A stretch of DNA of 64,000 nucleotides from Schmidtea nova (taxonomy: Eukaryota): positions 543,430,001 to 543,494,000 of the forward strand of contig CM097882.1 of assembly GCA_044892505.1 (NCBI GenBank), in the 5' to 3' direction. The notes beneath the pieces were generated by a model. It had not been told where the DNA came from. It did not search any database and worked only from the letters and a program-made list of their open reading frames with translations. How positions within the stretch are numbered: position 1 is the first letter of the stretch; the number at the start of each line of letters is the position of its first letter. The position numbers and the translations under genes are program-made. Shown here one piece after another: positions 7,213 to 51,068 of this stretch.

Positions 7213-10200
7213 ATTTTTACCTGGATTTTTAAGTAGACATACCGTTCGATTTTCATAGTTGGAATTTTCTTGTTCATTCTTGTTCTCTTTATTTTCATCT
7301 TTGTTTTCATTGTTTTTATTCTCCCATTTCTCACTGTTTCCGTGATTTCCGTGATCACTGTTATCATCATTTTGCTGCTGTTCGTTGCTATCGTTGTCTT
7401 CATCGTCTGGTTTATCGTTTGATTTATCGTCATCGGGGTCGTTTAGATCACCCTCGGTTTCTTTTGAAATGTCGTCCTCGACATTTATATCCTTTATTAT
7501 TTCCCAATACAATTTGATAATTCTTTGTTCATCTAGTTTTATTTCACCCATTTTGCATTTCAATGTTCCAGCATCGTCGTGGAGATAACTCTTGTCTTTA
7601 TTTTTGATCTTTTTTCGCCATTCTTTAACCAATTCAAGTAGTTTTTCTCTCTTTGTTTTTATTTTCATTTCTTCGTTTGGCTTGTTTGTGAATCTGAAAT
7701 CTGGTCTTTTTAGTAGTGCTTTTGCTACTCTAGGTAATGTCCAATTTTCAATCAAAGCTCGCTCCATTAACACATTTTTATCATATTTGAACTCGTTGTT
7801 CACATTCATCAGTCCTTCTCCAGAGAGTGGATCTTTCCATTTTATCATTTTTGAAGCTACTATTTCATCTTTTCTTATCACTGCCCTTAATAATGGCTTT
7901 GGATTTAAACTCAGTATTTCGATGTCCTCTTGACTTGCTTTTGATAAAAGATACTTGGCTATTGTATAATAAGGTGATCTGTAGACATATGATAATACAG
8001 TTTCATTGTTGTTATCCCTTTCTTTGATACTTGACCCTGTTCTTAATAACTCCTCGATTAAGTCTTTGGACCCTCCTTCTTCTACCGCTAGCATTAATGG
8101 TGTTTGTCCTTTCCAATTTTTTATATTCGAGTGTTGTCCGCATCTTTCCATGAGTTTAATTATTTCCATAGCTCTTTTTCCTTCTCCCTTCCTCAAGGCT
8201 ACATTTAGTGGTGTTTCCTCATTAAAATCAGTCATTGTAAATAATATTGGCATCCGCTCCTTGATTATATCAATGAAATTTGGTGTTGCCTTTCCTCTGG
8301 CATACTCATTTATTATCCGATTTAGTCCGTTTATTATTTCGAATACGTGTTTGCCTTCTGTCCATTCCGGCATAATTTCTTTTGCTGTTCCTATTATCAG
8401 ATCCATTTCTTTTATATGTTCCATTCTCGCATCATCCGTTATTTTTTGCTTAATTTTTAATGTTGGACTTCTCATCTTTGGTGCAAAGAATGTTGCTCCA
8501 CAACATCCACATCCTTTACTCTTTCTAAGCATGCATATTTGTCTTGTCTGTGATCTGGTCATTATCCTCCTTTCCTCTGGTTCTTTTGTCGCAGTTTTTT
8601 CTACTCGTTTACATCTACACACGTTCACGTATATCGGTCGAACTAACGGATTGTTGACTAATTTTACCCGGATGTTATTTTCGCTAACAAATATGACTTC
8701 ATATGGTCCTTTTCCCGTTCTCTGTAATTTTTTCGCTGTTCCTGGGATGATTTCTGGTGTTTCGACTATCACCCAATCGCCTAGCTTGAACTGATGTTCG
8801 TGTACATTTCTCTTTTTGTCATGTAGTTCTTTGTAGCTCTCTTGATTGAATCGTATATTCATACCTGCAACTTTCCAAATTTCTTGCATTCGCTCCTTGA
8901 ATTTTGTTACGTAATCGTCGATTTCCATATATTGTGATATTGGTGGTTGATATTCAAGATCCATTGGCATGTTACATTCTCTGCCGTACATCAATTTAAA
9001 CGGACTCATTTTTGTTGCCGAGTGAATCGACATACGGTATGCCATTAGACATAGATTCACATATTCATCCCAATCCTTTTGGTGTTTACTGACATAATTT
9101 GACATCATCTCAATCAATATTCCGTTAAATCTCTCCGTTTGTCCATTTGTTTGGGGGTGATATGGTGAAGTTCTCAACTTAGCAATTCTGAAATAATTGG
9201 TAACTTCGTTGATGATCTCGCTCATAAAATTTGTTCCTTGATCGGTTAATATTTGTTTTGGTGTTCCATATCTACAACATATTTCTTCGACTAATATTTT
9301 GGCTATTGTTCTAGCTTTCTGATCTGGCATTGCAAATGCTTCTGGGAATTTTGTTAAGTAATCAGTTATTACTAATATATAAACATTTCCATGATTCGTT
9401 TCTGGTAATGGTCCTACTACATCCATTGCGATCATTGTCATAGGTTCTGGTGGAATTGGCATTGGTTTTAAAGGTGTTTTCATTTTACTGCCAGTGCTTT
9501 TTCGCGTTGCACATATTAAACAATTCCTAATCCATTCTTTCACATCTTCTCCAATATTTGGCCAAAAATACTTCTGTTTTAATCTCGCTTCCGTTTTCTT
9601 AGCTGACATATGTCCACCAAGTTTTCCATCGTGGTATTGCATCAAGATGTCTTTCCTTCTACCTTCTGGTAAACACATGAGTCTTTTTTCTCCGTCCATT
9701 GCTAATAACCAGCCTTTTTCGATTGTATATTTGTGCCTGTTTTTCTCCATATGCTCCTTTAGTTGGCTGTTATGATCAAAGATTTTCATATCATTCTTAT
9801 TCAAATATTCGATGATTAATTTTAGCTCTTCATCTTCATTTTGTTCTTGTTGTAGTTTAGTGAAATCAATATCTTCTGCGATTATCATACATATTCGCCT
9901 GACATCTTTATCCATTAGTTCCTCAAACATAAACCTTGACATGCAATCCGCATTTGCATTCGCTTTCCCTGACTTGAACTTTATATATGGCGAATATTCT
10001 TGCAGCTGCATTGCCCATCTCATTAATCTGCTTGACGCTTCTTTGTGCTGGCCTAACCATACTAACGGTTGATGATCTGTTGTGATGTATATTTCGTGAC
10101 CCCATAATAGATATTTGAAATGTTTAATCGCCTGAATGATTGCTAGCGCTTCTCTTTCCGTTACCGAGTAATTCTTCTCGTGTTTTCGAAAGGTTTTGCT

Positions 10201-13200
10201 GTAATATCCTATCACTCTTTCTCTCCCATCTTCATCCCATTGTCCTAGTACGGCTCCTGACGCGTATCCACTTGCGTCGGTTGCTAATAGAAATGGTTTT
10301 TTGAAATCTGGGTGTACTAATATTGGCGATGAAATTAACTTGTCTCGCAACTCTTCAAATGCATTTTGTTGCTCTCTTTCCCAGATAAATGGTGTATCTT
10401 TCTTGACTAGCTCTTGTACAGGCTTTGCAATTCCGGCATAGTTTTTAATAAATTTCCGATAATAACCACATAGTCCTAAAAATTCTTGTACTTGGGTTAT
10501 GGTTTTCGGTATAGGACAATTTTTTATCTTTTCGATATTTCTTGGGTCCGGCTCTTTTCCTTTAGCTGATACAATGTGACCCAAAAAGGTAACTTTTGGT
10601 TTTGCCCAATCACATTTTGATGGTTTCAATTTTAATTTCCATTGCCTTAATCGGATGAATACGTTTTGGATATCTTGTAAATGTTGTTCAAACGTACCCG
10701 AGTAAATCAATAAATCGTCAATATATACCATACATTGTTTTATCCCGTGAGTTACAAAATTCATGCATCTTTGAAATGACGCAGGTGCATTAGTTAAACC
10801 AAATGGCATCTTCTTGAACTGGTACAGATCTTTTCCGATGGTAAACGCTGTTTTCTCTCTGTCCTCTTCTTTCACTTTAATCTGCCAGTAACCGCTTTTC
10901 AAATCTAATGACGTGAAGTATGCTGCACCATGTAATGTTTGTAACATTTCGTTGATATCTGGTAACGGGTATGTATCTCTCTTGGTTACTGCGTTCAATT
11001 GTCGATAATCAATACAAAATCGTTGGGTACCATCTTTCTTTTTTACCATTACTACTGGAAATTGCCATGGTGAACAACTTGGTTCAATCACATCTGCGTC
11101 TAACATCTTTTGCACTTCGGCTTCGGCCACTGCTTTCTGCGCCTCTGCTAGTCGATATGGTCTCAATGTGATCGGTGTTTCGTCTGTTAGGGGAATAGTA
11201 TGTTGAGTTACATCACTCGTTCCCAAGTCTAAATCTGATGCTGCAAAGATGTCTTTAAATTCTAACAATACTGTTTTTAGTTTTTCTTTTTCAATATCGT
11301 TTAAAATTTCACTGTCGATTACCCATAACTCCTCCACTTTACTTTCATCCTCTTGAATTTTAGGTAATTCAATATTCATCATCGGGGTTAATTTTCCCAA
11401 TCTCTCATTTTCGTAAATGATTTTGTCTTCCTCATCGAAATTGGTGATGTTGATTGGTATTTCGTTTTCTTTATTGACGTTCACTATTTCTCTTGCCAAT
11501 GGTAACTCTTTTCTCATCTCAAAATTTTGATTTGGCTCAAATATCATTTCCCCGACTGCCGTGTCTTTTACTTTGGTGAAACATATCATTTGCGTTCTTC
11601 CTGGTACGACAATTTTCTTTGAACACCTTACTTCCGTTTTCATTGAACAGATTTGTCCGCTTTTATCTTTCAATCTCATCGTACTCAAATCGATAACAAT
11701 CTCCTTTAATAATTCTGGCATTAAGTCTGTACCAATGATACATGAGGCACCCAATTGTTTTATTACAGCTAAATAAGTAGACATCTCTACGTCTTTATAC
11801 TTAATATCTGACCATATTTTCCCAATAACTTTGACTGATTCTTTATTGCACGTGACCACATCCATTGGTGCTTCTTCAATGCAAGGCCATAACATGCCTG
11901 GTATCATGTTCATGTTTATTGCTGATATATTTGCACCGGTATCTATCATTGCATCCATTTCAACACCGTTGATTTCAATGGCAATAGTAAGGGTTGGTCC
12001 AGCTGATGTTCTCATCATGGCTATTGTCATTGTTTCTAGATTTTTCTCTTCGCTTTGTGGTCTGTTTAGTATTGTTGGGTCTGGTCTGTTTAGTATTGCC
12101 GGGTCAATCATTGCCCAATTTGGTTCGTAATGTGCTGGGTAGAAATTTGGCATTGGTAACATTCGTAGTCCAGCTCGTGTTTTTTCTCTCACTGTTCCTG
12201 GTCTTTGTGGGTTAGGGTATGTCATTGGTGGTAAATTTTGACCTTCCCATTGTTTTGATTTTTCTGCTTCCCATATTGGTGCGGTACCATTTGATCCGGA
12301 GTTCGTTCCTCCTTGATTTCCTTTGTCATCGTTATCACTATCGTCATCATCCGAATCTTTCCTTCGGTTATCCCACCATCTTTTCCATCCACTAGGTCTG
12401 GTTTCTTTATATTTCGTTCTCTCTGCTTCGTTTTTCATAATGAATCTAAATTTTCTACCGATCTCTTCGTCGGTTCCTTTCATCTTGGTCAATATTCCAA
12501 TTAACCTCTTTATTCTATGAATGTCTTTTGAATGCCCATGCAATACCATAGTTTTAGCCAAAAATGGTAGGAATCCAAGTGCCATTTTCCAATTGATTTG
12601 TCTCTCTCTTTTATAGATATCAAAACAAGCTAGCATCTGAGTTATAATAACTCTGACTATTTGAATAATTAGGATTATCCCTAATATTCCTGCCATCATC
12701 TGTCCAAATACTAAGAATCTTCCCCACATGGCTTTCATCATATTATTGGTTGCGTGTTTAAAATGTTCTGGTGACAACAATAACTCGTAGTTCGGACTTC
12801 CCACGAAATTTGTTCCACCGGTTATGGCTATAATATTTGATAATACTGCTTGTCTTTGGGTTGGAAATAGTATATGCTTTCTCGCTGCTTCTAAATCTGC
12901 ATCTCTGTACACTCCACTGTGTGAAATATCTATGGGTTTAAATTCTATTTCTGTTGTTAACTCTGTTAATCCAAATCGTTTAGGTGCTGATACAATTTGC
13001 CGATTTGGAAAAACTACCCATTTTGCATTTCCCATGTCATACATTGGTCCATACGCATTACTGCAATTGAACTGATGGGGTTCGTAATTTGGTGGATTTA
13101 TTATTCTCGTTACTGCTTGTACAAATCGACTTCTTCCCTTGTAGAATATTTCCAATTCGTTAGTACATCGGTTTTCTGGTATTCTTGGTCTTTCCGGTAG

Positions 13201-16200
13201 TCTTGCTATCTCTTTTTTGCATTTGTATGTATACATAACTTCTCCCACAATTCGACCGAAATGTCCTTCTTGCAGTGGTAATAGTGGTATTGCGTTATCT
13301 GGATTCGTTATAGCCATTGCTAATTTGGTTCTCAAAATTTCTCTGTTCAATATACAATCGTTTTGTATCAAATCATGATATACTTTCTCTGTGGTTGCCA
13401 TACCTCTATGGTATAAGAAATCCATTTTATTATTTGCGTACAAATACGTTTTAATGTCCACTGTATCTGGTTTTGGTGCTGCTTCAGCTATCACTGTTGT
13501 AGATAGGAAAATTCCTTTGTAATTCGTTTTTATTACTAATCTTCCGCATTTACTGACGGTTTCACCTTTGATGAATCTCATTCCCACTCCTGGATCTTTT
13601 GCTAAAATTGTTGTTGATATAATTGCTGTTGGTGTATTTACTAATTTAAGTTTTTCCGTCGTCTCTTTATGCTGGAATGTTCTTGTTCTTTTGAGCTGTT
13701 CCATTTCTTGTCTGGTTGAATCATCTTTGGGCTCGTCATAAACTTTTCCTAGTATTTCCTCGAATTCAGCTTCTTGTAATAACATTAGTCGACATTTATT
13801 CGCATCTGCCTTATAAATCAATGTTGATGCACCAGTATTACACGAGGTATGTTCTGCAGAACAACTTGGGAATTTTCTCATTGATAGCGTGTCTGGATCA
13901 AAATATCCCGGATATGTTTCTAGTTTCACTTGATACATCTCTATTACTACTACATTGCTGACCACTTTTCCTAATAGAGTGTATGCTCCTCCTTTACAAC
14001 TTCCGTCCGGTTTATTGACGTATCCGGCTGCATAAACTCTTGTTATTTTAATTGCTCCTGGTTGGGCAGCTATTATTATGTTTCCTGCTAACGATATCCG
14101 TTTTGAGGTAAACGCTTCATTGCACTTTTCGCTATCCAGTGATATTACGGTTGATTCCATTCCTGGTTCGATAATTGTTGAATATGAATATTGTCCACAG
14201 TAATACGCAAATAACTTTCTCGTAACCGTGCATTCTCTTATTTCTGCTTTGATGAGGTCTGATTCCTGATACACGTTGTAACTTATTTTATTCACAATTC
14301 TTTCCAATTTTTTCGGCGTGGCTTGTTTACAATCTTCCGTATCTTTTAATGAATATTTCTCGCTAAGCTCGATTTTGTCACAATCGTATACCACAAACGC
14401 TGTTGCTCCCTTTATGCACATCATCCAAATCAATATTGTGGTCAATATCGCATTCATACTCTTCCCATATGTTTTTTGATCGCGAAAATTCATTGATCCT
14501 TCGAATTCTGTTAATAATTCTCTCAACTTTACTTGCATGGTTTCTGTTTGATCTATTTTATCTACTGAGTTGATGAATGTTTTCCAACCTCCTTGTTTCA
14601 TTACATACGGCTCTATCAGTTTCTCAATGATTTCCGTTATTGTGAATATATGACCATTTGAACTGTATCTGGGTGTTCTCCGTTTGTACAAGACGATCAT
14701 ATTGTACATTAAATATGCCAAGCTTACTAAATATTTTGCTGGTTCGTTCGTGTTGTTTGTTAATTTTTCGATAATTTCTTTCATTTCTGCAGGATTTCTC
14801 AACGTCATTCGTACTTTTCCTTCGATGATTTTTGAGATTATTGGTTTAATCGTTATCCACAGTTGTTTGGCTTCTTGTTGGATGTGGTCTCTTTTTAACG
14901 CTCTTTTTATTTCTGGGTTTGCCAATGCAAGCATATCAGATACTAATTCATTTATCCATCGGATTCCTTGTTCGGTTATTGGTGTATTACCTTTCACTTG
15001 ATTTGCAACTGACACTAGTTTGCTTACTTTTAGTTGTAATTGTTCCGTCCTGCTTACTGATGTTGGTTTTTGATTTCTTTCTGTTTGATCTTTCGCCGGC
15101 CTCCCTCTTGGGCGTTTATCTATCATCGTTCCAGCTTCTCGTCTACTTAGCTGATTATTCGCGATTTCTCTCGATGTTGTCGCTCCTCTATCTGTGATCC
15201 AATTACTCCATTCGTCAGTTGTAGAATTTTCTCTTGCTCGTTTTTGTACTTTTTCTCGGTCGGTTTCATCATCGGTTGCTGTGATTTTTTGCCGTTTTAC
15301 CCAAGGAATTCTCTGGTCATCGGTTGTTGTTTCATTTTCTATGTTTGAGAATAAATCCCCTGAGTAAAATGCTGTTTCATCGTTTTCTCTATTCGCAATA
15401 TTTGTCAGTTCTTCTAATACGTCTTCATCAGTTGTTTCGACAATAATTTCACTTGCAGCTTCCGGTATTTCTGGTTCGTCTAAATTTCCGAATAATTTTC
15501 TCATTTGGGTTCGATTTCCCTCTTTTCTGATTAGTTCATTGCCTGCAATTTTAGAAACAGTTAAATGATTACTTGTTCCGATTCGTATCGGGGTTACACC
15601 AATTTCTATCTCATCATCGAGTGATCTTCCTTCGTACTGTAGATGAAATGGTAATTCAAATGGCAGTTTCTTTTTAATCTCTTTTATTTTCGTGGTTGCC
15701 AATACTTCCATTTCTTCCTTTCCAAAGTCTGGAAAATGGATTTTTAATCCACATTTTTGCGGTTCGTCACTTTCCCATTCCATTTGCCTCCATTTTCTTC
15801 TAAGCTCATCGAATTGTTCTGGATACCAAGTGTATACTCGTCCATATTCCTCGATTTCCTTCACGAGCATTGTCATGGTTAATCTATCCTTGCCATTCTC
15901 GAGAATCCATTTTGCTAATTCGACTACCGCTCTTCGTTGATTTTTGGCACCTTTTTCTAAAATATCGATTAACTGTCTACTTTTTTGGGCTTCAGTTCTC
16001 TCTAATACTTCAGGGTCCATCAGTTCATCCATATCTACAGGACGTAATCTCGAGGTTGTTTCTTGTTTTCTTAGCACGCTGATTCTGGGAATTGTCAGCT
16101 TTTCCCTTACGTCTTCCTCAATTTTGCATGAAACATAAATATCTCCTTCACTTTGATATCGAGATTTTTTATCTAATAGCAAGTGTTGCAAGATAAATTT

Positions 16201-19200
16201 TGGTGCTCCTGATGCTATATTTTCCTCTTTTTCTGGTTTATGATAGCAGCTGCAGAGCTTTTCTGGATAAATTTCTTCACTATGACCCTTCTCTGAATTG
16301 TAGGATGATCCTATAGACAATGTTACTTTTTGATCGAACGGCCATGTTAATTCCTCGTCATTGATCCCTTTACAGATGATATAAAATAATGACGTATGAG
16401 TTCCTTTACCAACTCCATCTCCGTTTGGATAAATTCTCATTTTTAATTTATATCCGCCTGGGTAAGTGTAAAATTGTGGGCTTGTCAATCGCGTTACTTC
16501 ACCCTCCTTTGCTGCTCTCACTTTATCTGCCCAATTTGAAATTCTCCATTTGAATGGTGCAAGATATTTCTCTTCGCATATGTTCTCGTCGACTTCCAAA
16601 TGTTTCCCAGTTATTTCTGATGGTTCGTAAATCTCATGGGTTTCCTCATATAACAGTTCCTCAGGTATTCGTTCTGGTTCACATGTTACCCATCTATCCT
16701 CCACATTTGGTTGTTCCCATCTGTATCGATTTTCTAATTCTATCCATGTCTTTATCCACGGCGTTGGTTTACAATCTCCATAATGAAGAGGTTTTATTTT
16801 CCCCTTTATTTCATTATCCGCTCTCCAAAAATTATATAAATCGATTATCTGGTCTAGTTTTCCGACCATTTTTCTTTTAAATCTCCTCACGTGACCATCG
16901 TCTTTCTCTGGTTCGTCCATTGCCCATATTTTAACTGTTTGACCGTCTTCCCAAATACCCAGTTTATATAAAGGTGTCTGATCATCTTTTTCTAATACAT
17001 GTTTATTGTACACGATTATTACATCTTCTATTAATCCGTCATCACTATTTTGTTTCACGTTATGCATAATTTTCTCATCGATTATCCGTATGAATTCGTC
17101 TACCGTACAATCTGGTTCTATTTCAATTGTTTGTTCGTCTCCACTTGGCAACGTTAGATTGACTTTTATCGTTTCCGCTCGATTCTTTGATCTCTGATAG
17201 CCGCCATATTGACTTATTAATTCGATTGCTCGTTTATCATCTAATCTCACTAACTCGGTATCTCGTACGAACTCTACAAATCTCTTCATTGATGCTGGTC
17301 TTCTTCTATTTATACTATCGATCATTTTCCTCGTCTGGTCTATTGCTTGTGTCGAAAGCATTAATCGATTTTCCCATATTGCTTGTTCGGCCAATTTTAA
17401 TAATTTTGGTCCGATTTCATAATCGTATCTATCTCCAATTCTTGTCAGTAGTTTCATCACCGTTTCTTCAATCGCGTTCTTCTTTAACGTTAAGATATTC
17501 AACTCGTTCGGCCATATCATAGCATCTACTAGATGTATTCCCTTTTTGATTCGCCAATTATTCAAATAAAGATAATCGTTTTTAAAACTGCTACCCATTT
17601 TCTCTTGCATCCAGTCATATAATGCGTTAGTATTTGGGTCGTTTATTTTTATTCCTAATACATCGATTTCGGGGTGGTGTACTTCTATCGTATACTCTTG
17701 AGTTGGCGTTTCTTTTAATTGCTTCTTGTATTCCGCTATTGAGTTGTTCCACGCTGCGGTGAATACTTGATTTTCTACCTGATTTGCTTGGGTGACTTCC
17801 TTCATAAACTTCTGATATACTTTTTCATCAATAAACTCCCGATTCTTCATGGCTAATTCAACCTTGCCTGTTACTTCTCCGATGATATTCCAATCGTCTT
17901 CACTTAGCAACGCGTTGCTTGATGTTTCGGTATCACTTTCTTCGCTAGCCAAAGGTGCTTTTAAATCGTTGTTTTCCTCACTTGACGGAAATAAGTCACC
18001 TCCTAAACTACTTACTTCGCTAATCTCGTCTTCTGGATCTGTTTGATCATCATTTCGCATTCTCATCATATTTATTTTATACACATTTTTAAGATCTCTT
18101 TCTTTTTCCTTTTGCGTTCTTGCTTGTGACCAATTCATTGTTGCGTCCCATCGTTTTCTTTTCAGTGCTTCTACTTCTTCATCTGTCAATGTGTTATTCG
18201 CTTTTCGAATTGAAGCTTCAATTTTCTGCAGTAGTGCTCGTTGAAGTCGGTTTCTGGTTATAATTTTTTGAGCTTTCTTTGTGATCTCTTCAACTTCTTC
18301 AGTGCTAGTTTTTTCCAATTTCTGATTTAACTTTCCTACTTCATTCGCGACAATAGTTGTTATTTTCTGTTCTATTTCCTTCGCTTTTATTTTCACTATT
18401 TCTTCCAATTCCTCACAGGTGTTGCAAACATTCCCACTGTCTCTTTTTTCTTTTCTTCTTTGATTATATTCTTGAATGAATATTTTCCTTTCTTCTTCGT
18501 TCATTGATTTTATTGAAACTTCGAATTCTCCATCTTTTTCATTAATCTCTACATCTGGTAACTCTGTTATCATTTCCTTCACTTTTTCTATTACATTCTT
18601 CTGCAATTTACTCATTTCCTCTGGATCTTCTTTATCTTCGCTTTTAACTCTCATCATGTTAATTTGCCTTGTGTTATTTCCTCGATTTTTCCATCTCTCT
18701 TCAATTTCCCGTGCTTCCTCCAACTGAAGTCTCTGCCATTCTGCTTGTTGTTTCGTTTGATTTTTGTTCGTCCTTAACTTGTGAGGCTCGGTGATTTGCA
18801 AAGCATTAATTCTTGGCTGTTGTGGTTGGCTGACTGTTGTTCGTTCGATTAATTCTCTCAGTTGTTCAAGTTCCTGCATCACATTGATTTGTGGTGTTTG
18901 ATTTTGGTTTTCGGTTCGCTGTGGTGCATTGACTTGGTTTGGGCATTCTCTCGCCATATGTCCAGGTTGTTGGCATTTGAAACAATTGGCGTTTCTTCTA
19001 AAATTTCCTCCATTATTGTTATTTCTTACGTAGTAATTTCCTGCACTAGCATTTACGGTTCTGCATACATTTTCTGTATGACCTTTTCTACCACAACTTT
19101 GACATGTTTTAGTGCTATAACATTCATGACTCAGATGTCCAGATTTTTGACAAATGTTACATATTTTGCTGGTGAATAAATTGTTATTCCCGTAATTATT

Positions 19201-20067
19201 CCTATTACTATACGCGTTGCTGTAAGTATTGTTATTTCTGTCTGTATTGTTTCGATTACGGTTGTCCATATTTGTATTCTGATTTCTCATTGGAGTTTTG
19301 AACATTTGTTGCGCTCTTGGTATAAATTGATTCATCATTGGAGTCGTGTTGTCTGGTTGATTACCTTCATTGGTCGTATTGGTTGTTGATTTTGTTGTTG
19401 GTTCCGCTGTCAAAACAGCAACTGTCAATGGTGGTTTTAAATACATTTCGCATCGATTCGCGATTGTCAGTGCTTCCTCCAACGTTTTTGGTGCCTGACA
19501 TCCGATATTTGCACGAATATCATCTCTTCTGAGTCCACTCAGAAATACTCCTACCAATCCTTCATCTTTTACTTTTTCCTCGCCGTAGGCATCTCTTGCC
19601 ATACGTTTTAATTCGCACGCGAACATCGCATTGGATTCGTTGGGTTTTTGTTTTCTGTGGAAGAAATCTAACATTTTCTGATTTTCTTCTTTCGCCACTC
19701 CAAAGGTTTTTTCTAAAAAGTCCTTGATTTCTTTCCATGTTCTCAATTTTTCATCATCTCGTCTTGCCTCTAAATAAACATCTTGTGCGCTTTCTTTTAA
19801 ATATAGCGGCATTCGTTCTCGGGTGGCTTCGTCTGACCAGCGACAGATCGTAATATAAACCTCAAATTCCTTTAGGAAGGTTTGTAATTTACTGATATTA
19901 CCATCAAATGGTTCTCCACGGAATTTTTCTTTAAAATCTCCAAGGTTGGCTGCTGACGTGGTACTCATTTTTATCCCTTCTTTCTCCTCGTCCGAGTTTA
20001 AACTTTCTGTGTAATTCTGGTTAATCTGTTCAATATAATTCCTTTCTACTTCCTCGCTGGTATCCAC
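5275..20067 (-). CDS. Giant Gag-accessory-Env-Pol-accessory polyprotein (4930 codons from GTG; frame open to 20268; true start probably upstream via splicing)
   Basis: Uninterrupted ORF with recognisable gag, MATH, glycoprotein, PR, RT, RH, INT, ankyrin, FN3-like and TM segments. The ORF-track start is GTG, and the first in-frame ATG is MSTTSAA about 33 codons later. Confidence 0.97.
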   Translation of the reverse strand: MDTSEEVERNYIEQINQNYTESLNSDEEKEGIKMSTTSAANLGDFKEKFRGEPFDGNISKLQTFLKEFEVYITICRWSDEATRERMPLYLKESAQDVYLEARRDDEKLRTWKEIKDFLEKTFGVAKEENQKMLDFFHRKQKPNESNAMFACELKRMARDAYGEEKVKDEGLVGVFLSGLRRDDIRANIGCQAPKTLEEALTIANRCEMYLKPPLTVAVLTAEPTTKSTTNTTNEGNQPDNTTPMMNQFIPRAQQMFKTPMRNQNTNMDNRNRNNTDRNNNTYSNAYSNRNNYGNNNLFTSKICNICQKSGHLSHECYSTKTCQSCGRKGHTENVCRTVNASAGNYYVRNNNNGGNFRRNANCFKCQQPGHMARECPNQVNAPQRTENQNQTPQINVMQELEQLRELIERTTVSQPQQPRINALQITEPHKLRTNKNQTKQQAEWQRLQLEEAREIEERWKNRGNNTRQINMMRVKSEDKEDPEEMSKLQKNVIEKVKEMITELPDVEINEKDGEFEVSIKSMNEEERKIFIQEYNQRRKEKRDSGNVCNTCEELEEIVKIKAKEIEQKITTIVANEVGKLNQKLEKTSTEEVEEITKKAQKIITRNRLQRALLQKIEASIRKANNTLTDEEVEALKRKRWDATMNWSQARTQKEKERDLKNVYKINMMRMRNDDQTDPEDEISEVSSLGGDLFPSSEENNDLKAPLASEESDTETSSNALLSEDDWNIIGEVTGKVELAMKNREFIDEKVYQKFMKEVTQANQVENQVFTAAWNNSIAEYKKQLKETPTQEYTIEVHHPEIDVLGIKINDPNTNALYDWMQEKMGSSFKNDYLYLNNWRIKKGIHLVDAMIWPNELNILTLKKNAIEETVMKLLTRIGDRYDYEIGPKLLKLAEQAIWENRLMLSTQAIDQTRKMIDSINRRRPASMKRFVEFVRDTELVRLDDKRAIELISQYGGYQRSKNRAETIKVNLTLPSGDEQTIEIEPDCTVDEFIRIIDEKIMHNVKQNSDDGLIEDVIIVYNKHVLEKDDQTPLYKLGIWEDGQTVKIWAMDEPEKDDGHVRRFKRKMVGKLDQIIDLYNFWRADNEIKGKIKPLHYGDCKPTPWIKTWIELENRYRWEQPNVEDRWVTCEPERIPEELLYEETHEIYEPSEITGKHLEVDENICEEKYLAPFKWRISNWADKVRAAKEGEVTRLTSPQFYTYPGGYKLKMRIYPNGDGVGKGTHTSLFYIICKGINDEELTWPFDQKVTLSIGSSYNSEKGHSEEIYPEKLCSCYHKPEKEENIASGAPKFILQHLLLDKKSRYQSEGDIYVSCKIEEDVREKLTIPRISVLRKQETTSRLRPVDMDELMDPEVLERTEAQKSRQLIDILEKGAKNQRRAVVELAKWILENGKDRLTMTMLVKEIEEYGRVYTWYPEQFDELRRKWRQMEWESDEPQKCGLKIHFPDFGKEEMEVLATTKIKEIKKKLPFELPFHLQYEGRSLDDEIEIGVTPIRIGTSNHLTVSKIAGNELIRKEGNRTQMRKLFGNLDEPEIPEAASEIIVETTDEDVLEELTNIANRENDETAFYSGDLFSNIENETTTDDQRIPWVKRQKITATDDETDREKVQKRARENSTTDEWSNWITDRGATTSREIANNQLSRREAGTMIDKRPRGRPAKDQTERNQKPTSVSRTEQLQLKVSKLVSVANQVKGNTPITEQGIRWINELVSDMLALANPEIKRALKRDHIQQEAKQLWITIKPIISKIIEGKVRMTLRNPAEMKEIIEKLTNNTNEPAKYLVSLAYLMYNMIVLYKRRTPRYSSNGHIFTITEIIEKLIEPYVMKQGGWKTFINSVDKIDQTETMQVKLRELLTEFEGSMNFRDQKTYGKSMNAILTTILIWMMCIKGATAFVVYDCDKIELSEKYSLKDTEDCKQATPKKLERIVNKISYNVYQESDLIKAEIRECTVTRKLFAYYCGQYSYSTIIEPGMESTVISLDSEKCNEAFTSKRISLAGNIIIAAQPGAIKITRVYAAGYVNKPDGSCKGGAYTLLGKVVSNVVVIEMYQVKLETYPGYFDPDTLSMRKFPSCSAEHTSCNTGASTLIYKADANKCRLMLLQEAEFEEILGKVYDEPKDDSTRQEMEQLKRTRTFQHKETTEKLKLVNTPTAIISTTILAKDPGVGMRFIKGETVSKCGRLVIKTNYKGIFLSTTVIAEAAPKPDTVDIKTYLYANNKMDFLYHRGMATTEKVYHDLIQNDCILNREILRTKLAMAITNPDNAIPLLPLQEGHFGRIVGEVMYTYKCKKEIARLPERPRIPENRCTNELEIFYKGRSRFVQAVTRIINPPNYEPHQFNCSNAYGPMYDMGNAKWVVFPNRQIVSAPKRFGLTELTTEIEFKPIDISHSGVYRDADLEAARKHILFPTQRQAVLSNIIAITGGTNFVGSPNYELLLSPEHFKHATNNMMKAMWGRFLVFGQMMAGILGIILIIQIVRVIITQMLACFDIYKRERQINWKMALGFLPFLAKTMVLHGHSKDIHRIKRLIGILTKMKGTDEEIGRKFRFIMKNEAERTKYKETRPSGWKRWWDNRRKDSDDDDSDNDDKGNQGGTNSGSNGTAPIWEAEKSKQWEGQNLPPMTYPNPQRPGTVREKTRAGLRMLPMPNFYPAHYEPNWAMIDPAILNRPDPTILNRPQSEEKNLETMTIAMMRTSAGPTLTIAIEINGVEMDAMIDTGANISAINMNMIPGMLWPCIEEAPMDVVTCNKESVKVIGKIWSDIKYKDVEMSTYLAVIKQLGASCIIGTDLMPELLKEIVIDLSTMRLKDKSGQICSMKTEVRCSKKIVVPGRTQMICFTKVKDTAVGEMIFEPNQNFEMRKELPLAREIVNVNKENEIPINITNFDEEDKIIYENERLGKLTPMMNIELPKIQEDESKVEELWVIDSEILNDIEKEKLKTVLLEFKDIFAASDLDLGTSDVTQHTIPLTDETPITLRPYRLAEAQKAVAEAEVQKMLDADVIEPSCSPWQFPVVMVKKKDGTQRFCIDYRQLNAVTKRDTYPLPDINEMLQTLHGAAYFTSLDLKSGYWQIKVKEEDREKTAFTIGKDLYQFKKMPFGLTNAPASFQRCMNFVTHGIKQCMVYIDDLLIYSGTFEQHLQDIQNVFIRLRQWKLKLKPSKCDWAKPKVTFLGHIVSAKGKEPDPRNIEKIKNCPIPKTITQVQEFLGLCGYYRKFIKNYAGIAKPVQELVKKDTPFIWEREQQNAFEELRDKLISSPILVHPDFKKPFLLATDASGYASGAVLGQWDEDGRERVIGYYSKTFRKHEKNYSVTEREALAIIQAIKHFKYLLWGHEIYITTDHQPLVWLGQHKEASSRLMRWAMQLQEYSPYIKFKSGKANANADCMSRFMFEELMDKDVRRICMIIAEDIDFTKLQQEQNEDEELKLIIEYLNKNDMKIFDHNSQLKEHMEKNRHKYTIEKGWLLAMDGEKRLMCLPEGRRKDILMQYHDGKLGGHMSAKKTEARLKQKYFWPNIGEDVKEWIRNCLICATRKSTGSKMKTPLKPMPIPPEPMTMIAMDVVGPLPETNHGNVYILVITDYLTKFPEAFAMPDQKARTIAKILVEEICCRYGTPKQILTDQGTNFMSEIINEVTNYFRIAKLRTSPYHPQTNGQTERFNGILIEMMSNYVSKHQKDWDEYVNLCLMAYRMSIHSATKMSPFKLMYGRECNMPMDLEYQPPISQYMEIDDYVTKFKERMQEIWKVAGMNIRFNQESYKELHDKKRNVHEHQFKLGDWVIVETPEIIPGTAKKLQRTGKGPYEVIFVSENNIRVKLVNNPLVRPIYVNVCRCKRVEKTATKEPEERRIMTRSQTRQICMLRKSKGCGCCGATFFAPKMRSPTLKIKQKITDDARMEHIKEMDLIIGTAKEIMPEWTEGKHVFEIINGLNRIINEYARGKATPNFIDIIKERMPILFTMTDFNEETPLNVALRKGEGKRAMEIIKLMERCGQHSNIKNWKGQTPLMLAVEEGGSKDLIEELLRTGSSIKERDNNNETVLSYVYRSPYYTIAKYLLSKASQEDIEILSLNPKPLLRAVIRKDEIVASKMIKWKDPLSGEGLMNVNNEFKYDKNVLMERALIENWTLPRVAKALLKRPDFRFTNKPNEEMKIKTKREKLLELVKEWRKKIKNKDKSYLHDDAGTLKCKMGEIKLDEQRIIKLYWEIIKDINVEDDISKETEGDLNDPDDDKSNDKPDDEDNDSNEQQQNDDNSDHGNHGNSEKWENKNNENKDENKENKNEQENSNYENRTVCLLKNPGKNTIIMTILLTMLNWVKAIDYIFDQRRAEARIVTDTENIWITNIKGELIIKICTVAIRKNGVSDHQKCIRTALAIGEEQKVEKLESGTTYIICIYRTNQIRAICAAKEMITKMGNERNRLEKIQSVTKTPIDENEEENEEEEQDKKVMMTIQNKTTIEVKEKEMMVTNNVREPITQICWIKTIHMQNKDRQLSCKFQMTGQNGKFRIPGLKPGTSYTICIRRIWTQKLCLEKPTKEIITTTTTTSGTTTYYPLIVETKSTEIILINNHEEVIKKVCWRKVDMNSGLDNPSKCYQQSVKGKEQMIIKELESKTTYLICIWRTFVPICQEHTTTEQIITSTESGREPDEKAIRLPRATITVTEKPTIVKGYRKEIEISITPNQIQKETEKFFQNDIIKVKNVQGHLIARICIYEVKLQQEKCKSVSNKEEKSFIEEEEYYVAGWERGTKYRVCLYKKLNEDPTCQFISKLPRRVDDTREFSIEDQILTTTKPTVYNKYISEEEAERIIQGGRPIKIVQTTTESPTTISAAVEESKIAIKMIWITAGIIGAILVLILTQHAKITGRCKRKTKRKRQWPSIEKFEYGISLEEVKTEDEYEICNGSEFNGMWMQGLPPTINPSIIEADIYRTTNELYGGMRNLHFGPQETLV
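7845..8235 (-). other. Ankyrin repeats (about 4) C-terminal to integrase
   Basis: FNEETPLNVALRKG, WKGQTPLMLAVEEG...LIEELLRTGS.I..RDNNNETVLSY and KPLLRAV match the TPLH.A / L.LL..GA ankyrin pattern. Confidence 0.88.
8640..9635 (-). other. Integrase (HHCC, DDE core, GPY/F)
   Basis: H...GGH...C..C, MDVVGPLP, TDQGTNF, YHPQTNGQTERFN, GKGPYEV. Confidence 0.97.
9935..10300 (-). other. RNase H (Ty3/Gypsy type)
   Basis: LATDASG..GAVLGQ...IGYYSK.....EKNYS.TEREALAII...TDHQPL...NANADCMSR. Confidence 0.96.
10550..11150 (-). other. Reverse transcriptase
   Basis: SPWQFPVVMVKKKDG..RFCIDYRQLN...LDLKSGYWQI...KTAF...MPFGLTNAPASFQR...YIDD (10714-10725). Confidence 0.98.
11690..12000 (-). other. Aspartic protease
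   Basis: IEINGVEMDAMIDTGANISAI (DTG at 11935-11943) and downstream CIIGTD. Confidence 0.95.
12500..14457 (-). other. env: Envelope-like fusion glycoprotein, chuvirus/Monjiviricetes type, embedded between Gag and protease
   Basis: Signal-like MNAILTTILIWMMCIKGATA followed by FVVYDC...SL.D..DC. Cys-rich ectodomain with GEVMYTYKC...C..EL.I...G..RF...VTR...C...Y....W, and a C-terminal TM (12643-12718). Confidence 0.8.
14570..15030 (-). other. Bcl-2-like helical domain
   Basis: About 150 aa amphipathic helical region ending YVMKQGGWKTF (14575-14607), matching the BH2 consensus WI..QGGW..F. BH1 is divergent, with no NWGR. Confidence 0.65.
15555..15747 (-). other. Second ubiquitin-like domain (divergent)
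   Basis: LKIHFPDFGKEEMEVLATTKIKEIKKK...HLQYEGRSLDDEIEIGVTPIRIGTSNHLTV matches the L.y.Gr.L.D...I ubiquitin motif. Confidence 0.6.
16114..16560 (-). other. TRAF-type MATH (TRAF-C) domain within polyprotein
   Basis: FKWRI...SPQFYTYPGGYKLKMRIYPNGDGVGKGTHTSLF...G.ND..LTWPFDQKVTL...P..E.NIASGAPKF is a near-complete TRAF-C signature. Confidence 0.95.
16921..17172 (-). other. Ubiquitin-like domain within polyprotein
   Basis: TIKVNLTLPSGDEQTIEIEPDCTVDEFIRII...IIVYNKHVLEKDDQTPLYKLGIWEDGQTVKI follows the beta-grasp ubiquitin pattern. Confidence 0.75.
18940..19165 (-). other. Three CCHC zinc knuckles (nucleocapsid)
   Basis: CNICQKSGHLSHEC, CQSCGRKGHTENVC and CFKCQQPGHMAREC all fit CX2CX4HX4C. Confidence 0.95.
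19430..19930 (-). other. gag: Gag capsid-like domain
   Basis: PFDGNISKLQTFLKEFE...W...LYLKESAQDVY...W..IK..L...F...QKPNESNAMF..EL...GL...EAL..A resembles the retrotransposon Gag capsid pattern. Confidence 0.85.
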
Positions 20068-20944
20068 AGATAAACTTTCCGATGTTGCAAACTCTGTTTG
20101 TTCGGATGAAGGCCTTCTGTTGTGTGTTCTTGAAGATTTCGCAGTTTCTTTCTCTTTGTTTTCTAGTAGACTTAGCTCTCTGTCTAAATTTTGATCTTTG
20201 TCTTGATTTTTACGCTTTAATAGCCGCTCTGCGATACTCCCAGTATTCCCTGCTTTGTCAATTGTTGATTATTTCTCTCTTACGGTTAGATTCTCTTTTA
20301 TATTTTTCTTCTTTTACTTCTTTCCTCTTCAATGAGTCTTCTTTTTCTTCTTTTTCTTCCTTTATTCCTGTTTTCAAAACTGATTCACTTGAATTTGATG
20401 GTTTTGGTTTGATGTTATCTAAAAATATAAAAAAATGGATCCATTTATAATTAATTTTGTTCATCATTTTAGGCTTCTTCCTCTTTCCCACCGTTCCGAC
20501 ATCGTCGCTACTCACCCCCCATAATTTAGGTGGATTTTAATTTATCTATACCTCGTAATAATTATCTATGTAGGGTCGTACGGTTTACCTGGTACCTTCA
20601 TCCATAATAATAATGATAATAATAATAATAATACTAATTATAATAATAATTTGCACAAAACTTTTCTTAACATAACTCTCATACTTCGTTTCGAAATCAT
20701 GATTTTCACAAATACTTTATTTATTTATTGTCGTCGTTCTCTTTCAGATTTTCTGATGTTTCCAGCTAGCTTTTTATAATATTTCTTAATGGATGTTACA
20801 ATTCTTACGCTGTCATTCTATCCTATTTTTCCTAGATGTACCTTCTTTAATCTCTTTTTACTAACTTCTATTTTCTCAAAATGCATTTTATTTCTTCTAC
20901 GAGCTCTCAAAATTTCTCACATGCATGAATTTCTATATATTTTT

Positions 20945-21517
20945 GGATCCTCAAAGTCTCTCATACATGAACTCTCAAAGTTTCTCAATTATCTGGACTC
21001 TCAAAGTCTCTCATACATGAACTCTCAAAGTTTCTCAATTATCTGGACTCTCAAAGTCTCTCATACATGAACTCTCAAAGTTTCTCAATTATCTGGACTC
21101 TCAAAGTCTCTCATACATGAACTCTCAAAGTTTCTCAATTATCTGGACTCTCAAAGTCTCTCAATTATCTGGACTCTCAAAGTCTCTCCCAGAGCGCTCA
21201 ATTATCTGGACTCTCAAAGTCTCTAAATTACCTGGACTCTCAAAGTCTCTAAATTACCTGGACTCTCAAAGTCTCTCAATTATCTGGACTCTCAAAGTCT
21301 CTCAATTATCTGGACTCTCAAAGTCTCTCACATACATGAACTCTCAAAGTTTCTCAATTATCTGGACTCTCAAAGTCTCTCACATACATGAACTCTCAAA
21401 GTTTCTCAATTATCTGGACTCTCAAAGTCTCTCATACATGAACTCTCAAAGTTTCTCAATTATCTGGACTCTCAAAGTCTCTCACATACATGAACTCTCA
21501 AAGTTTCTCAATTATCT
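20945..21517. repeat. Tandem array, 50-bp higher-order unit built from 24-26 bp subunits sharing ACTCTCAAAGTYTCTCA
   Basis: TCAAAGTCTCTCATACATGAACTCTCAAAGTTTCTCAATTATCTGGACTC recurs at 20951, 21001, 21051, 21101, with subunit shuffling thereafter. Confidence 0.95.
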
Positions 21518-22488: not shown

Positions 22489-22815
22489 TTATGAACAAAA
22501 TACTACGATTTTGTCATCAGTTGTCTGTTTGCAGATTACACATCTCTTTATTTCTCTAGAGCACGGCTGGCAATAATACAAATGCCCACACGGCATGAAT
22601 AAAATGTTCGCTTCTCTTTGTCGACAAATATAACATCCTTCGAACAAATCGATCTGTTGATTTATCGATCTCTCTAGCTTGTCCATAATTTTATCGATTT
22701 TACCAATCCATTCTTGTATTTTTAAATTAAAACTCGGATTATTCGGTCGCAATCGTCGTAATTCATAAATTGTCTCTAACGAAATATTGTTTGTTGTTCC
22801 TACAATTCCTTTCAT
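22489..22815 (-). CDS. Small IAP-like C3HC4 RING finger protein (108 aa from first ATG) in element leader
   Basis: CYICRQREANILFMPCGHLYYCQPCSREIKRCVICKQTTDDKIVVFCS* fits the IAP/MGRN-type RING with an aromatic C-terminal tail. The ORF-track start at 22848 is GTG; the first ATG is at 22815. Confidence 0.85.
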   Translation of the reverse strand: MKGIVGTTNNISLETIYELRRLRPNNPSFNLKIQEWIGKIDKIMDKLERSINQQIDLFEGCYICRQREANILFMPCGHLYYCQPCSREIKRCVICKQTTDDKIVVFCS

Positions 22816-22974
22816 TTCATTTTCTCGTTCGAATCTCTCGCTCAACACTCAATTCACCGTAACATATGCTCAATCGCTTCCATCTAAAATATTCATGATG
22901 ATCGGTGTTTATAACTTTTTGAATTAACCATTCATTATGATTTGAACGAAAAATAAATAATAAATTATATTTTT

Positions 22975-24133: not shown

Positions 24134-27100
24134 AGTAAAATCAAACACAATTTTCCGCTGTTTCTGTCAAAATTTTATTTAACAGTTTGTTGATGTTTTA
24201 TGAAAACTTTCATTAAGTCTCGCGCGAACTCGTTTTAGTTGCTTTTCGATTTTTTCAAGCAAAACAAACTCAAATCCCGGCTGAGCCCCCAAATTTTTAT
24301 ATGGTGGGTCGTTGATCGTCAATATGACCTTGACGTTGCTATGGCCCTCATCAACAACCCAACACACAAAAATATTGAAATTTACCACCTTGTTACCCGT
24401 CACTATGTAACGTTGGTACTGTAACAAGTGGGTGGGTATTCGCAATCAGTGAGCGTCGTCAATACGAAACTATGATTGACCGAATATCTCCTGGGTCCAA
24501 GGGCTACCGATAGAAGGTTTCTTGCCCATTTTGTCCCCTTCTTCGACGATTTATCTTTAAGCATTCAACAAAATTTTATCGGCAATTCAACATTAATATT
24601 CTACCTAACTATAAATTCGTGATTACATCCAAATAAATCATTCCGAGCATCAAAACACTAATAAAACATTAAATTTTACTTATATTATAATTTATGTTAA
24701 TTATTAATGAAAGTATTCTAAAATAAAATTTTTAATTTACATTTGCATTTACGATAAAATCAAGACTTTAATTCTTAATTTGTGAATATTTATAACTAAT
24801 TTACTTTTATAACTAATTGATATTCCGAAACAATTTGTTTCAATCCATCATTCAATCCACAACAAGCCGAACACCATTCAAATTCACCAAGCATAATTTT
24901 CTACGCAAATCATTTCTCTCTATTGGCAAAACAAGTAAATTTTTAAATTAATTGATATGCTGAAATTAATTCTTTTCATAGCCCTCAATTTCAAAAACAC
25001 AGGTGGAAACTCAGTTCGGAAATCTTAGCAACTACGTCTTATCACTTTAATCTATTTGACAGATTTGAATATCTAACAATTATCCAAACCATTAATCCAA
25101 TCGACAAATCCCAATTAATCAACAATCCGCGACAATGTCTAATGATCATGACTCCAATAAACCAGCGTTGTGGTCATCCATGTCAGTGACAAATACTGCT
25201 TAACAATATCTTTTCTTAGTGCTGAATTTAATATATGTACTTTATTTGCATTTTTACTTTTTATGTAAAATGGTTTTTATCATACAAAAGGGTAACAATT
25301 AATTATTTTAATTAAAATACTTAAAGTTTTGCTAGACGAAATATAATAATCTTTGAATTTCATGTGAAAATAAATTGATTGTCACTAGATGAAATATAAT
25401 ATTATTTTAAAATAATATACCAAATTTTACTTTAAAAGGCACCATAAATTCACAATAATACAATTTTTTAACTTAAACATTATTGATTTTAAAGGCAATC
25501 TTGAAAACTTCCTAATATCCGTTACAAATAAAAAGGTTCCACACCAAATGTTTGTGGTGGGTGAATGGATGAAACCTTGGCATTGTCCTTCTGGAGGCAT
25601 GCATGTCTACGCATGATGTGGGATACTATCATTTCGAGCTTGATTGTTGATACACTTTTACAGGTTTATTATGAATTTTTCATTGATAGTGCAGGAGATT
25701 GTATGTGATTATATGTGTCTGTATGTTGACTTGAATGTTGGATGAGAATAAATAATTTATTGGTGGATGAGGTGTAGTATGATGACTGTGTGTTCTATTG
25801 TTACTGTTGGGTTTGTGTGTGATTGTATGATGAGCGATTTAAAAACAATTGAGTGCTTGTGAGTGTGGTTGGACGTATAATTCTAACTAGCATGTCTGTG
25901 TGAAATTTTTGGGGTAGCTGGTTGGTGTGTATGTGATTGTTGAATGTTATTGAGTGATACGGTGTAGGTGTGTCTATTGTATTTTATACGTATGTTGTTT
26001 GTATATTAATATGGATGATGCTATTGAGTGAAAAGGGTGTAAATCTTTGCAATGGGTGATGTATTAGTATTTTAAGATGTCGTGGGGGGTTATATTATAA
26101 ATTAAATAAATTGTATAAAATATTTCTAAAGTTAAAATAAAAATAAAAAAAAAATTTTTAAAGTTAAACTAATGGTAATGATTTTTAGATCAAGATAATA
26201 ATAATAATTTTTAGATCGAAATAATAATAATATTTCTCATAATGCTTTTTTACAAATTTTTAAGTTTTAAAATTTCTACGAAAAACAATTAACGATAAGG
26301 TTTATAATTTTTTATAATGTCGATTTGAATTTACAATTTTTATACTTTAAGAATAGAATAAAAAAAAAATTTCTATAAAATCTCGAATTCAGATTTTTTA
26401 TAAAATAATAAAATTTATTAATATAATAATAAAATTTCAATCTAAATTTTCATGGGGTTTAATATAACTTTTGATTTTCAAATTCTCGGGAATTTTACGA
26501 AATGATAAAATCCTTTTATATATTAATAATATTAGGAACCAAATTTGGTTTACAATTTTTCCATATAAAATCTTTTCAACATAATAAAAAGCAAATTTCT
26601 ATTTCTGATCCAAATGAAATGATAATAAATTTTTATCCATAAATTCAAGATCTAAATAAGCATTTAATCTAAAAAAACTTTACCTGCTAAATAAAAATAA
26701 AATAAAAATAAGTTATAAATTTTTCAACGAGTATTTTTAACCTCAAGCAAAGTAAATTTCGGTTTTGTTGAGCATGAATTTCCCAACTAAGTGTGCGCGA
26801 ACCTTTCGGGACACTTCACTCAGGAATTTCAGGCTCTCGAAAAACAAGATTCACAGGAAAACTTATTTAGACCATAATGAGCTTTAATTCAGATTAAATC
26901 AATACTTGTTTCACAATTTGTTTCACTTCATGAGCATTATTCTAGACTTGAGCATTATTTCGAACCATTTTCTTTTCATCATCAGCATCCATTTTTCTTG
27001 CATTTTCTTATGAGATGAACGTTGTTGAGAGTGCGAAGGTGAAGGCGAGTACGAGTCGATTTTTTAATCAATAATATTTCCTATTTTAGATTTCAAGACA

Positions 27101-28558
27101 TGAGTTAGAAATTATTATGTTGTATTACGAAATTGCTTATGTAGATAATAAAAATATGATACTCTATTATAATACAAATCATTAGTATAACAAAACCTTG
27201 CTCTTGGCCAAACCGCGATTCCCCAGTTGGGATGACGCGAATTTGGATGTATGAGCCTCACCTTAAAGTGGAAATATGGGCTGGCCGATTACCAATCAGA
27301 CAACGATCCACCCAGGCTACTAACAGATCCGCACAACCAAGGCTGGACGGATCGTCAGAAGATATGGGAGAAAAAAAAAAAAAAAAATTTTTATTTATTT
27401 TCATAATTTAATTTAGTTATCGAATTTCAATGAGATCTTTCCTGAATTATTTTGGGAATTTGTGGCTCGTGATAATGATTATGACAACAAAAAAGAAACT
27501 AAGCTATTAATCATGAAAATACTTTAATAATATAAAATTGACCATAATAAATAAAATGACAAATAACATATTAAATAAAAAAGGGGGGAATGGGATGATC
27601 GTCAGGCATGACGGACGACCATTCCAATCCCCAATGAGAATAACCAAAATCAAACAAATCCTTACGTTTGTCCAATTAACTTCTGCTACGATTTCTTTCA
27701 AACAAATTAATTTTTTCTTAGAAATTTGGAACGATTTTTCCACAAATTTTCTTGGAATCAACTTCTGATAGTAACTTCTTGGAATCAAATTCTGATATTA
27801 GCTTTTCTCTTCTCTTCTTGAAATCAAATTAGCTTTTCTTCTTGCAATCAAATTCTCAAGTTGGATTTCACAAAAGTTATTTTTCGCAATTTCTCCGTAA
27901 ATTAATCAAGAAAAATTTTCCACCAAATTCTGAAATCTGCCATTTTGATGGCGGTATATATACCATCAAATTTTTTCTATCTCCGGTAGTGCAATAAAAC
28001 AAATTGTTCTAGAAGTTTCTCTTAATTTTTTCTAAATTAATTCTAATGATTTTCCGAAAATTAATTCCATATTTTTGTATAATAATTTTTTATAAACTAT
28101 AAATAATTTATTTTAATTAAAAATTTTTATGTTTGAATCGAAATTTGTTCGATTTGATTTAATTTATGATTTTCGATCCATATTAATTCTTTCTATTGTT
28201 ATATGTGAAATTTTGTGATAAATTCACAATTTTCCTCTAGAATTGTGTTAATTTTTCTGCACTGAGGATTTTTATGACAAAATTCTGTTCTTTATGGGCA
28301 CTTTCAATGGGTTTTCCGCCTATTCTAGCTTCCAAACATTCTGCTTTTAATTTCTCTCGAGATTTCCGTGGAAATATTTACAAATTCGCAGTTAGCGCGT
28401 ACTCTACCGGTTGATGTATTTTGATTCCACTTCACCTTCTGATGCTTTCCGCTTAATTGTTAGATTTTTAATGGCAGCTAAGGCTAAAATGAAATCTTGC
28501 GCGCTCTCTACCTATTGGGTTATCGTTTTATTAAAACAAATTGCGTTTTGGCCCAACA
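24134..28558 (-). repeat. 5' LTR (at least 4.2-4.4 kb; inner boundary probably in or near N-gap 23977-24133)
   Basis: 24387-28558 is a copy of 1-4171 with terminal TG on the element strand at 28558. 24134-24386 is assumed to be LTR but cannot be compared within the window. Confidence 0.9.
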
Positions 28559-38848: not shown

Positions 38849-39383
38849 TGTTGGGGTTAGTATAAAAAGCACGAAAGTAACAAGAAATATCAAAATAAAT
38901 AAGTGCAAAAAATTAATTAAAATTTATCAAAAATTTAAAATTAATATCCATCGGGGGAAATGGGTATGGTTGAATGCCAAATCAAAAGACGAAGCCAAAA
39001 ATAATAACAGAAATTTAGTAAGAGGTCCCCAGAGAAAGTTATATAGTAAAAACAAACTAATTAAAATTAATTAATCGCTCAATGGGAAACCCGAGACAAT
39101 GGGAAGTCCGAGGCAATGGGAAACCCGAGACAATGGGAAGTCCGAGGCAATGGGAAACCCGAGCGCAGTAGAGACCCGAGAGATCAAAGCCAGGAGATTG
39201 CGCAGGGCAATTAGAGAAAAGCCACCCTATCGCAATCACAATAATTTGTTTTTAAATCAATTAAGCCCGAGATTGGGTAACTTTTAGTTATTGATAAAAT
39301 TAAATTGTCATTTGCGAGAGGTATAAAAGTGTTCTGTGTTGGGTTCATTGATTTCGATAATTAAACAGAACAATAACCCAACA
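38849..39383 (+). mobile_element. Solo LTR (535 bp), TSD ATAT
   Basis: Starts TGTTGGGG, ends ACCCAACA, atat flanks, GGGAAACCCGAGACAAT sub-repeats. Confidence 0.85.
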
Positions 39384-50944: not shown

Positions 50945-51068
50945 ACTATAGATCAAACTTTCTCTAAACAAGTATTCAAAATTTCGGCACATCCTTTATA
51001 AAGTATGTATTTGATAAAGGCTGTACCGAAATATTGTGTACTTGTTTAAAGAAATATTGATCTATAGT
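50945..51068. mobile_element. Fold-back hammerhead-like element, same family as 45373-45541
   Basis: ACTATAGATC...GATCTATAGT arms and TTGATAA-A-GG..CC-GAAATAT-T-GTGT at 51011-51039. Confidence 0.6.

Follow-up and report, generated by a model that had tools for sequence, protein, structure and literature searches.

The window analysed here, a stretch of 64,000 nucleotides from Schmidtea nova, harbours a young and intact Burro-type Ty3/gypsy element on its minus strand. The element is bordered by a 5' LTR of 4257 bp with TG...CA ends (24302..28558) and a 3' LTR (1..4171) that extends 85 bases past the window start and is 4256 bp long overall. The LTR pair is identical over 4256 aligned bases bar one 1-nt gap and is accompanied by a 4-bp target-site duplication, GAAT; since the LTRs differ by this single gap, the insertion is recent. 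A PBS-like 18-mer (24274..24291, minus strand), presumably resembling a tRNA-Pro site, is situated 10 nt inside the LTR end and occurs in 4 of 12 other autonomous leaders, among which some leader stretches stopped short of the site. Behind the leader, the minus-strand frame from 20268 to 5275 holds 4997 open codons in one gag-env-pol frame, and the giant ORF beginning at its ATG 19968 (5275..19968) encodes 4897 aa. Pfam matches follow the order retrotransposon Gag, CCHC knuckle, MATH, Monjiviricetes-type fusion glycoprotein, protease, RT, RNase H, integrase, ankyrin and a weak fn3. The Ty3/gypsy assignment is given by the PR-RT-RH-IN order (matches at residues 2763, 3075, 3296 and 3534-3705) and the paired TG...CA LTRs with target-site duplication. 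The Burro assignment follows the architecture described in section 7 of PMC6431247, namely a single ORF of ~5000 aa with Gag, MATH, env between gag and PR, and ankyrin. An omega of ~0.14 on shared variants indicates purifying selection on the giant ORF.

The closest Gag relatives are predicted proteins with 36-58% identity, among which the named Burro1-4 sequences are absent. The host genome contains no fewer than 150 sequences that match Gag with an identity of 99-100%. Searching the S. nova genome with foreign Gags recovered only the family of the window element, and no Gag relatives were confirmed in metagenome and viral contigs. The ~1000 C-terminal aa past the integrase (5275-6900, minus strand) comprise ankyrin repeats, a hydrophobic signal-like stretch, fn3-like repeats and a transmembrane-like segment, which possibly represent a second membrane protein. 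Outside the element, the window contains related palindromic repeats of ~200 nt (45362-45552, 50911-51102 and 63774-63995) and a pair of 17-nt tandem arrays (34585-34840 and 38907-39163).

The 3.8-kb leader carries a tandem array of ~24-26-nt units (20944..21517) and an accessory ORF for a RING protein (22492..22848, minus strand; C3HC4_3, Pfam PF13920, E 2e-13), whose domain is also found in predicted proteins of a relative. This ORF is shorter or broken in the present copy, with 119 codons from stop to stop, and in most others; an ATG-started version of 160 aa exists in 3 of 12 other copies, and in the region 22492-22890 (minus strand) the ATG of this form directly follows the acceptor-like TATTTTAG. 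Further upstream, at 23195-23228 (minus strand), a second strong acceptor is preceded at 34 nt by GTAAGT, which reads GTAAAT in several copies, and this arrangement occurs in 6 of 12 other autonomous leaders. The possibility that no AUG lies between acceptor 23195 and the RING ORF was ruled out by 11 ATGs, which are located there in all three copies inspected.

Because 82 ATGs precede position 20522 in the leader, plain scanning from the LTR fails to reach the giant ORF. The initial annotation had proposed that two introns join a hidden ATG mini-exon to this frame, and the motifs and arithmetic on which it was built were borne out. On the minus strand, the 7-nt mini-exon (20516..20522) starts with an ATG having A at -3 and G at +4 and is followed by a 97-nt intron 1 (20419..20515) from GTGAGT to TTTTTAG, an ATG-free exon 2 of 135 nt (20284..20418) and a 100-nt intron 2 (20184..20283) from GTAAG to TTTAG. 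Every junction is in phase 1, and 7 + 135 + 14909 nt sum up to 15051 nt or 5017 codons including the stop. The statement that the giant frame otherwise starts with GTG only was mistaken, because the in-frame ATG 19968 is present in all 117 mapped copies, and GTG 20067 was rejected as a start since it is found in just 7 of 115 parsed copies.

These counts stem from 118 distinct copies chosen by similarity to the leader or to Gag, of which 117 were mapped; copy L105, with its leader deleted, was excluded. The ATG count covers 115 copies, as two of the 117 failed parsing, and 89 copies form the subset with a full giant frame. Because the copies were selected by similarity and recombine, their counts do not represent independent events. 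A pattern search of the host genome returned 250 matches to the intact leader motif, and 92 of the 100 first-listed keep the exact mini-exon and donor, the pattern being blind to copies without the ATG. Some copies occur as pairs 14-17 kb apart on one strand, usually with one truncated member (L020/L021, L027/L028, L029/L030, L057/L058), which could be tandem or nested insertions or assembly effects.

Intron 1 combines a consensus donor and a pyrimidine-rich acceptor (14/17 pyrimidines) with constrained ends and a free interior. No substituted site was found among the 117 copies in the mini-exon plus donor (13 nt) or in the acceptor (19 nt), while neighbouring segments vary at 8/74, 20/131, 18/78 and 45/213 sites (11-25%). 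The ATG, the GTGAGT and the acceptor AG are thus invariant, the G-run of the mini-exon has six Gs in 116 of 117 copies, and shared indels whose lengths are not multiples of three make the intron vary between 95 and 99 nt. The motif GTRAGT occurs only three times in the 20-kb internal region, donor 1 among them, and the only strong acceptors in leader and ORF are those at 23195 and 20419, with none inside the ORF. In shuffles of the upstream block, an in-frame path from an ATG to the ORF via GTRAG and YAG arose in 208 of 500 cases; therefore, being in frame is no evidence by itself. However, a path using an acceptor as pyrimidine-rich as acceptor 1 appeared in 1 of 500 shuffles, and a strong acceptor, defined for this chance test by at least 12 pyrimidines in 14, in 32 of 2000, which places intron 1 above chance. 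Hence, judged at the level of the sequence, intron 1 is likely real, and probably it, or acceptor 20419 alone, is functional.

The ends of intron 1 recur in an abundant non-autonomous derivative, of which 30 loci (L124-L153) were read out of 613 candidates. Its leader is joined to integrase sequence, and in the printed loci the jump occurs ~60 nt past acceptor 1; the derivative may thereby delimit the packaging signal. In this diverged family, both ends are kept around a changed interior of 111-112 nt. GC replaces GT in 22 of 30 loci, with the motif otherwise kept, and the G-run is variable, counting six in 17 of 30. Predicted proteins of the relative with a 36-58% identical Gag read through NGGE...YLFLG/HLFLD at the matching place, which, as far as amino acids of gene models can tell, would agree with a donor of similar sequence and an acceptor rich in T. 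Among integrated copies, no intron-less match was found for either junction, compared with 250 for the intact leader, and this fits the exclusion of spliced RNA from packaging as well as the absence of splicing. Contigs from four runs of unstated kind from one study, which presumably carry Tn5-type adapter ends, showed no joint at either proposed junction, neither in the narrow region, where two other joints were listed, nor among the 15 of 43 joints listed for the wide region, and these contigs have no weight in either direction.

Intron 2 is a far weaker and unsupported candidate, which does not show the combination of consensus donor, pyrimidine-rich acceptor and constrained ends. Its donor GT is lost in 6 of 117 copies, 3/8 donor and 3/18 acceptor sites are variable, its composition resembles coding sequence, and the last 84 nt at its 3' end contain no stop in the giant frame. 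Acceptor 2 is purine-rich with 5/17 pyrimidines and just one of 16 in-frame, phase-1 AGs; therefore, intron 2 does not rise above chance. Conservation of the splice dinucleotides, suggested before as a check, thus holds for intron 1 in the 117 copies and fails for donor 2 in six of them. The reading frame of exon 2 is dispensable. Of the 117 copies, 39 have this frame disrupted, and so do 27 of the 89 with a full giant frame, 23 of the latter through a single inherited 1-nt deletion near 20405 that occurs in 31 of 117 copies and is followed by a freely varying A-run. Exon 2 also lacks amino-acid constraint (7 nonsynonymous to 1 synonymous variants), and none of 24 tests revealed similarity to the N-termini of homologues. 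When 20 exon-2-broken copies, ten of which form a young clade with distances of 0.04-0.25%, were compared with 20 exon-2-intact copies over 9.9 kb of the ORF, the variants shared only among the broken ones comprised 3 nonsynonymous versus 14 synonymous changes (neutral expectation 72% nonsynonymous). Copies with a broken exon 2 hence keep their giant ORF under purifying selection, an argument that recombination and trans-mobilisation weaken without removing it. Collectively, the introns in the leader proposed by the initial annotation hold with regard to intron 1, which is supported by sequence constraint, whereas the route through both introns to 5016 aa is unsupported as a needed path; such a start is likely dispensable and at most optional.

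Between acceptor 1 and the Gag core, the minus strand contains a stretch of 473 nt without ATG in all three frames (19969..20443), which ends at the in-frame ATG 19968. Across the 19.8 kb with their 520 ATGs, no other interval between ATGs is as long, the runner-up measuring 226 nt, and a 450-nt part was free of ATG in only 9 of 3000 shuffles. None of the 115 parsed copies has an ATG across the stretch, which starts 25 nt before acceptor 1, and intron 1 itself contains four. Such a pattern is the signature that would be expected of a scanned 5' leader reaching from acceptor 1 to ATG 19968. The latter represents residue 101 of the 4997-codon frame, has the context AAAAATGA and lies 15 codons ahead of the Gag core; homologues carry a Met at a similar place, and the length from there is near the 4,873 aa reported for ORF1 of Burro1 (PMC6431247). 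ATG 19968 is likely the main start of the polyprotein. A start at MSTTSAA, which had been named as an outcome speaking against the spliced mini-exon start, accordingly fits the data best, while the other such outcome, a continuous ATG-led frame, exists in none of the 117 copies.

Upstream of ATG 19968, a further 100 codons (19969..20268, minus strand) are open and might serve as an N-terminal extension. An equal openness was obtained in 6 of 3000 shuffles, and no indel interrupts the codons in 117 copies. In 9 of 24 tests, which do not count as independent, residues 30-100 were similar to the N-termini of homologues. These features suggest that a longer N-terminal form may sometimes be translated, although the shared variants (21 nonsynonymous to 13 synonymous, omega ~0.6) point to weak constraint. 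An in-frame ATT at 20262 with A at -3 and G at +4 is kept in all 115 parsed copies.

The explanation that we prefer, to which we give a little less than an even chance, is that splicing at intron 1, or at least at acceptor 20419, occurs near the end of the 3.8-kb leader and yields an mRNA on which ribosomes would scan through a 450-nt exon devoid of AUG until they reach ATG 19968 as the main start. The ATG of the mini-exon, which is likely the start of a uORF or of an optional longer form, would then open a short uORF of 55 aa with intron 2 retained and of ~16 aa in exon-2-broken copies, and ribosomes would reinitiate or leak past it to 19968. The unspliced RNA would be the packaged genome, and a minor longer form could arise optionally via intron 2, exon skipping or a non-AUG codon. 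The 100 open codons and their similarity to homologues count against this model, because it explains the extension solely as an optional form. It might also be possible that exon-2-broken copies are mobilised in trans.

Without cis-splicing of intron 1, a similar leader could result from transcription that starts at an internal promoter close to 20420, from trans-splicing of a spliced leader to acceptor 1 or from internal ribosome entry, and the G-rich motif would act as a packaging or structural signal. A TATAAAT lies ~30 nt upstream of 20418; therefore, an internal promoter could produce the same AUG-free leader, although this TATA-like word is lost in the diverged family. The non-autonomous loci keep the motif despite GC in most of them and with the ORF deleted shortly beyond, so the motif could indeed be a packaging or structural element, and the absence of intron-less copies agrees as well. 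Spliced-leader trans-splicing has been described for Schmidtea, and flatworm leaders terminate in ATG (PMC12582326, in the part covered), yet a leader ATG placed in phase 0 on acceptor 1 would hit a stop within 15 codons. Also speaking against this alternative, which we regard as unlikely, is the GTGAGT donor, which is perfect and rare, shows no variation within the autonomous family and has the spacing to its acceptor of a normal intron.

Removal of both introns, with the mini-exon ATG and 5016 aa as the needed N-terminus, appears distinctly improbable. It accounts for the open extension, for the fixed G-run that varies in the non-autonomous family, and for a 1-nt insertion in nine copies that would sit harmlessly within intron 2; its path is intact in 61 of the 89 full-frame copies, and exon 2 has exactly 135 nt in 79 of 117. 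However, the purifying selection on the ORF of exon-2-broken copies, the properties of donor and acceptor 2, the unconstrained exon 2 and the frequency of chance in-frame paths all argue against it, and the absence of out-of-frame ATGs is left unexplained. Still more doubtful seems the skipping of exon 2, by which the mini-exon ATG would be joined to an in-frame acceptor inside the giant frame and give the extension to all lineages. In 88 of the 89 full-frame copies, nothing interrupts the direct connection to acceptor 2, and this reading would explain why the G-run is fixed, the donor invariant and the extension open, but the machinery would have to pass over the invariant, far stronger acceptor 1 in favour of purine-rich AGs, and the extension is only weakly constrained. 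Finally, a connection of the exon 2 frame to the giant frame without intron 2 is hardly credible: the AATTGAC word is present in all 115 parsed copies and the stop of the exon 2 frame overlaps the open giant frame, but the route by a +1 frameshift at AAT-TGA-C is uninterrupted in no more than 57 of the 89 full-frame copies, and a 1-nt indel fails because the same stop precedes the giant frame in 116 of 117 copies, the lone exception gains no ATG, and the lack of any continuous ATG-led frame indicates that the stop is not a defect peculiar to this copy.

A gag intron in the yeast element Tyl6 found no confirmation in the literature consulted and does not serve as support here. The initial annotation regarded introns in a gag leader as unusual, but a retained intron is not odd in itself, because facultative introns and short upstream exons are documented for LTR elements (PMC3735527, PMC12992720, as far as covered). 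BARE1, copia, Ogre and CRR possess facultative introns, 104 nt long in BARE1, and separate RNA pools for translation and packaging (PMC3735527); these introns are located within or between ORFs and set Gag:Pol ratios, whereas the present intron is situated upstream of the start. A situation similar to the one proposed here is found in the insect endogenous retroviruses ZAM, Beagle and springer, in which an exon for a short peptide, or part of a start codon, is located ahead of gag and becomes joined by splicing to an ORF further downstream (PMC12992720). Their splice target is env, with Gag made from unspliced RNA, while splicing in the present element would serve the gag-env-pol frame as a whole.

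Among planarian elements, the giant Ty3/gypsy element Burro/GYPSM1 is described in PMC6431247 with a similar total length of ~28.6 kb, tandem repeats, an upstream accessory ORF and a giant ORF with Gag, CCHC, MATH, a mononegavirus-like fusion protein between gag and protease, PR-RT-RH-IN and ankyrin. BURRO1 transcripts become more abundant in animals after piwi knock-down (PMC8532177). In contrast to the description in PMC6431247, the accessory ORF here encodes a RING protein. Across the whole giant protein, Pfam reported no BIR or BCL2-like domain at E 0.1. The covered part of the description gives no leader intron or start-site mechanism, while the present element has a candidate leader intron. 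An env between gag and pol, as found here, also characterises the GAG-ENV-POL errantiviruses of Platyhelminthes, Nematoda and Bryozoa (PMC13524379); the words 'splice' and 'Burro' do not occur in the main text of that paper. Long polyprotein relatives with PF24664 are 41-45% identical in the RT region; among the sequences from environmental assemblies, gag-env-pol polyproteins of 2800-4100 aa with the same fusion domain show this identity (P0089-P0104, P0112, P0123). The literature searched, including the covered parts of PMC6431247, PMC8532177 and PMC13524379, yielded no report of a Burro element whose complete gag-env-pol frame is served by a spliced leader, and the original Burro paper and supplements may bear on this point.

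How an ORF of 5000 aa is expressed behind an AUG-rich leader of ~4 kb in the largest LTR retroelements was not addressed in the literature that we found. A spliced, AUG-free leader, if true, would answer this question and fix the N-terminus of the polyprotein. It is conceivable, though somewhat unlikely, that Burro-type elements even invert the retroviral rule, in that the whole Gag-Env-Pol polyprotein would be made from a spliced subgenomic mRNA only, the mini-exon ATG would select between a long and a short Gag N-terminus, and the unspliced RNA carrying the RING gene would be purely the packaged genome. If such a spliced-only Gag-Env-Pol mRNA existed, translation would no longer be coupled to packaging, and the large number of derivatives mobilised in trans would be accounted for. 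An AUG-free spliced leader would also bear on cis-preference and on the spread of non-autonomous derivatives in genomes dominated by such elements.
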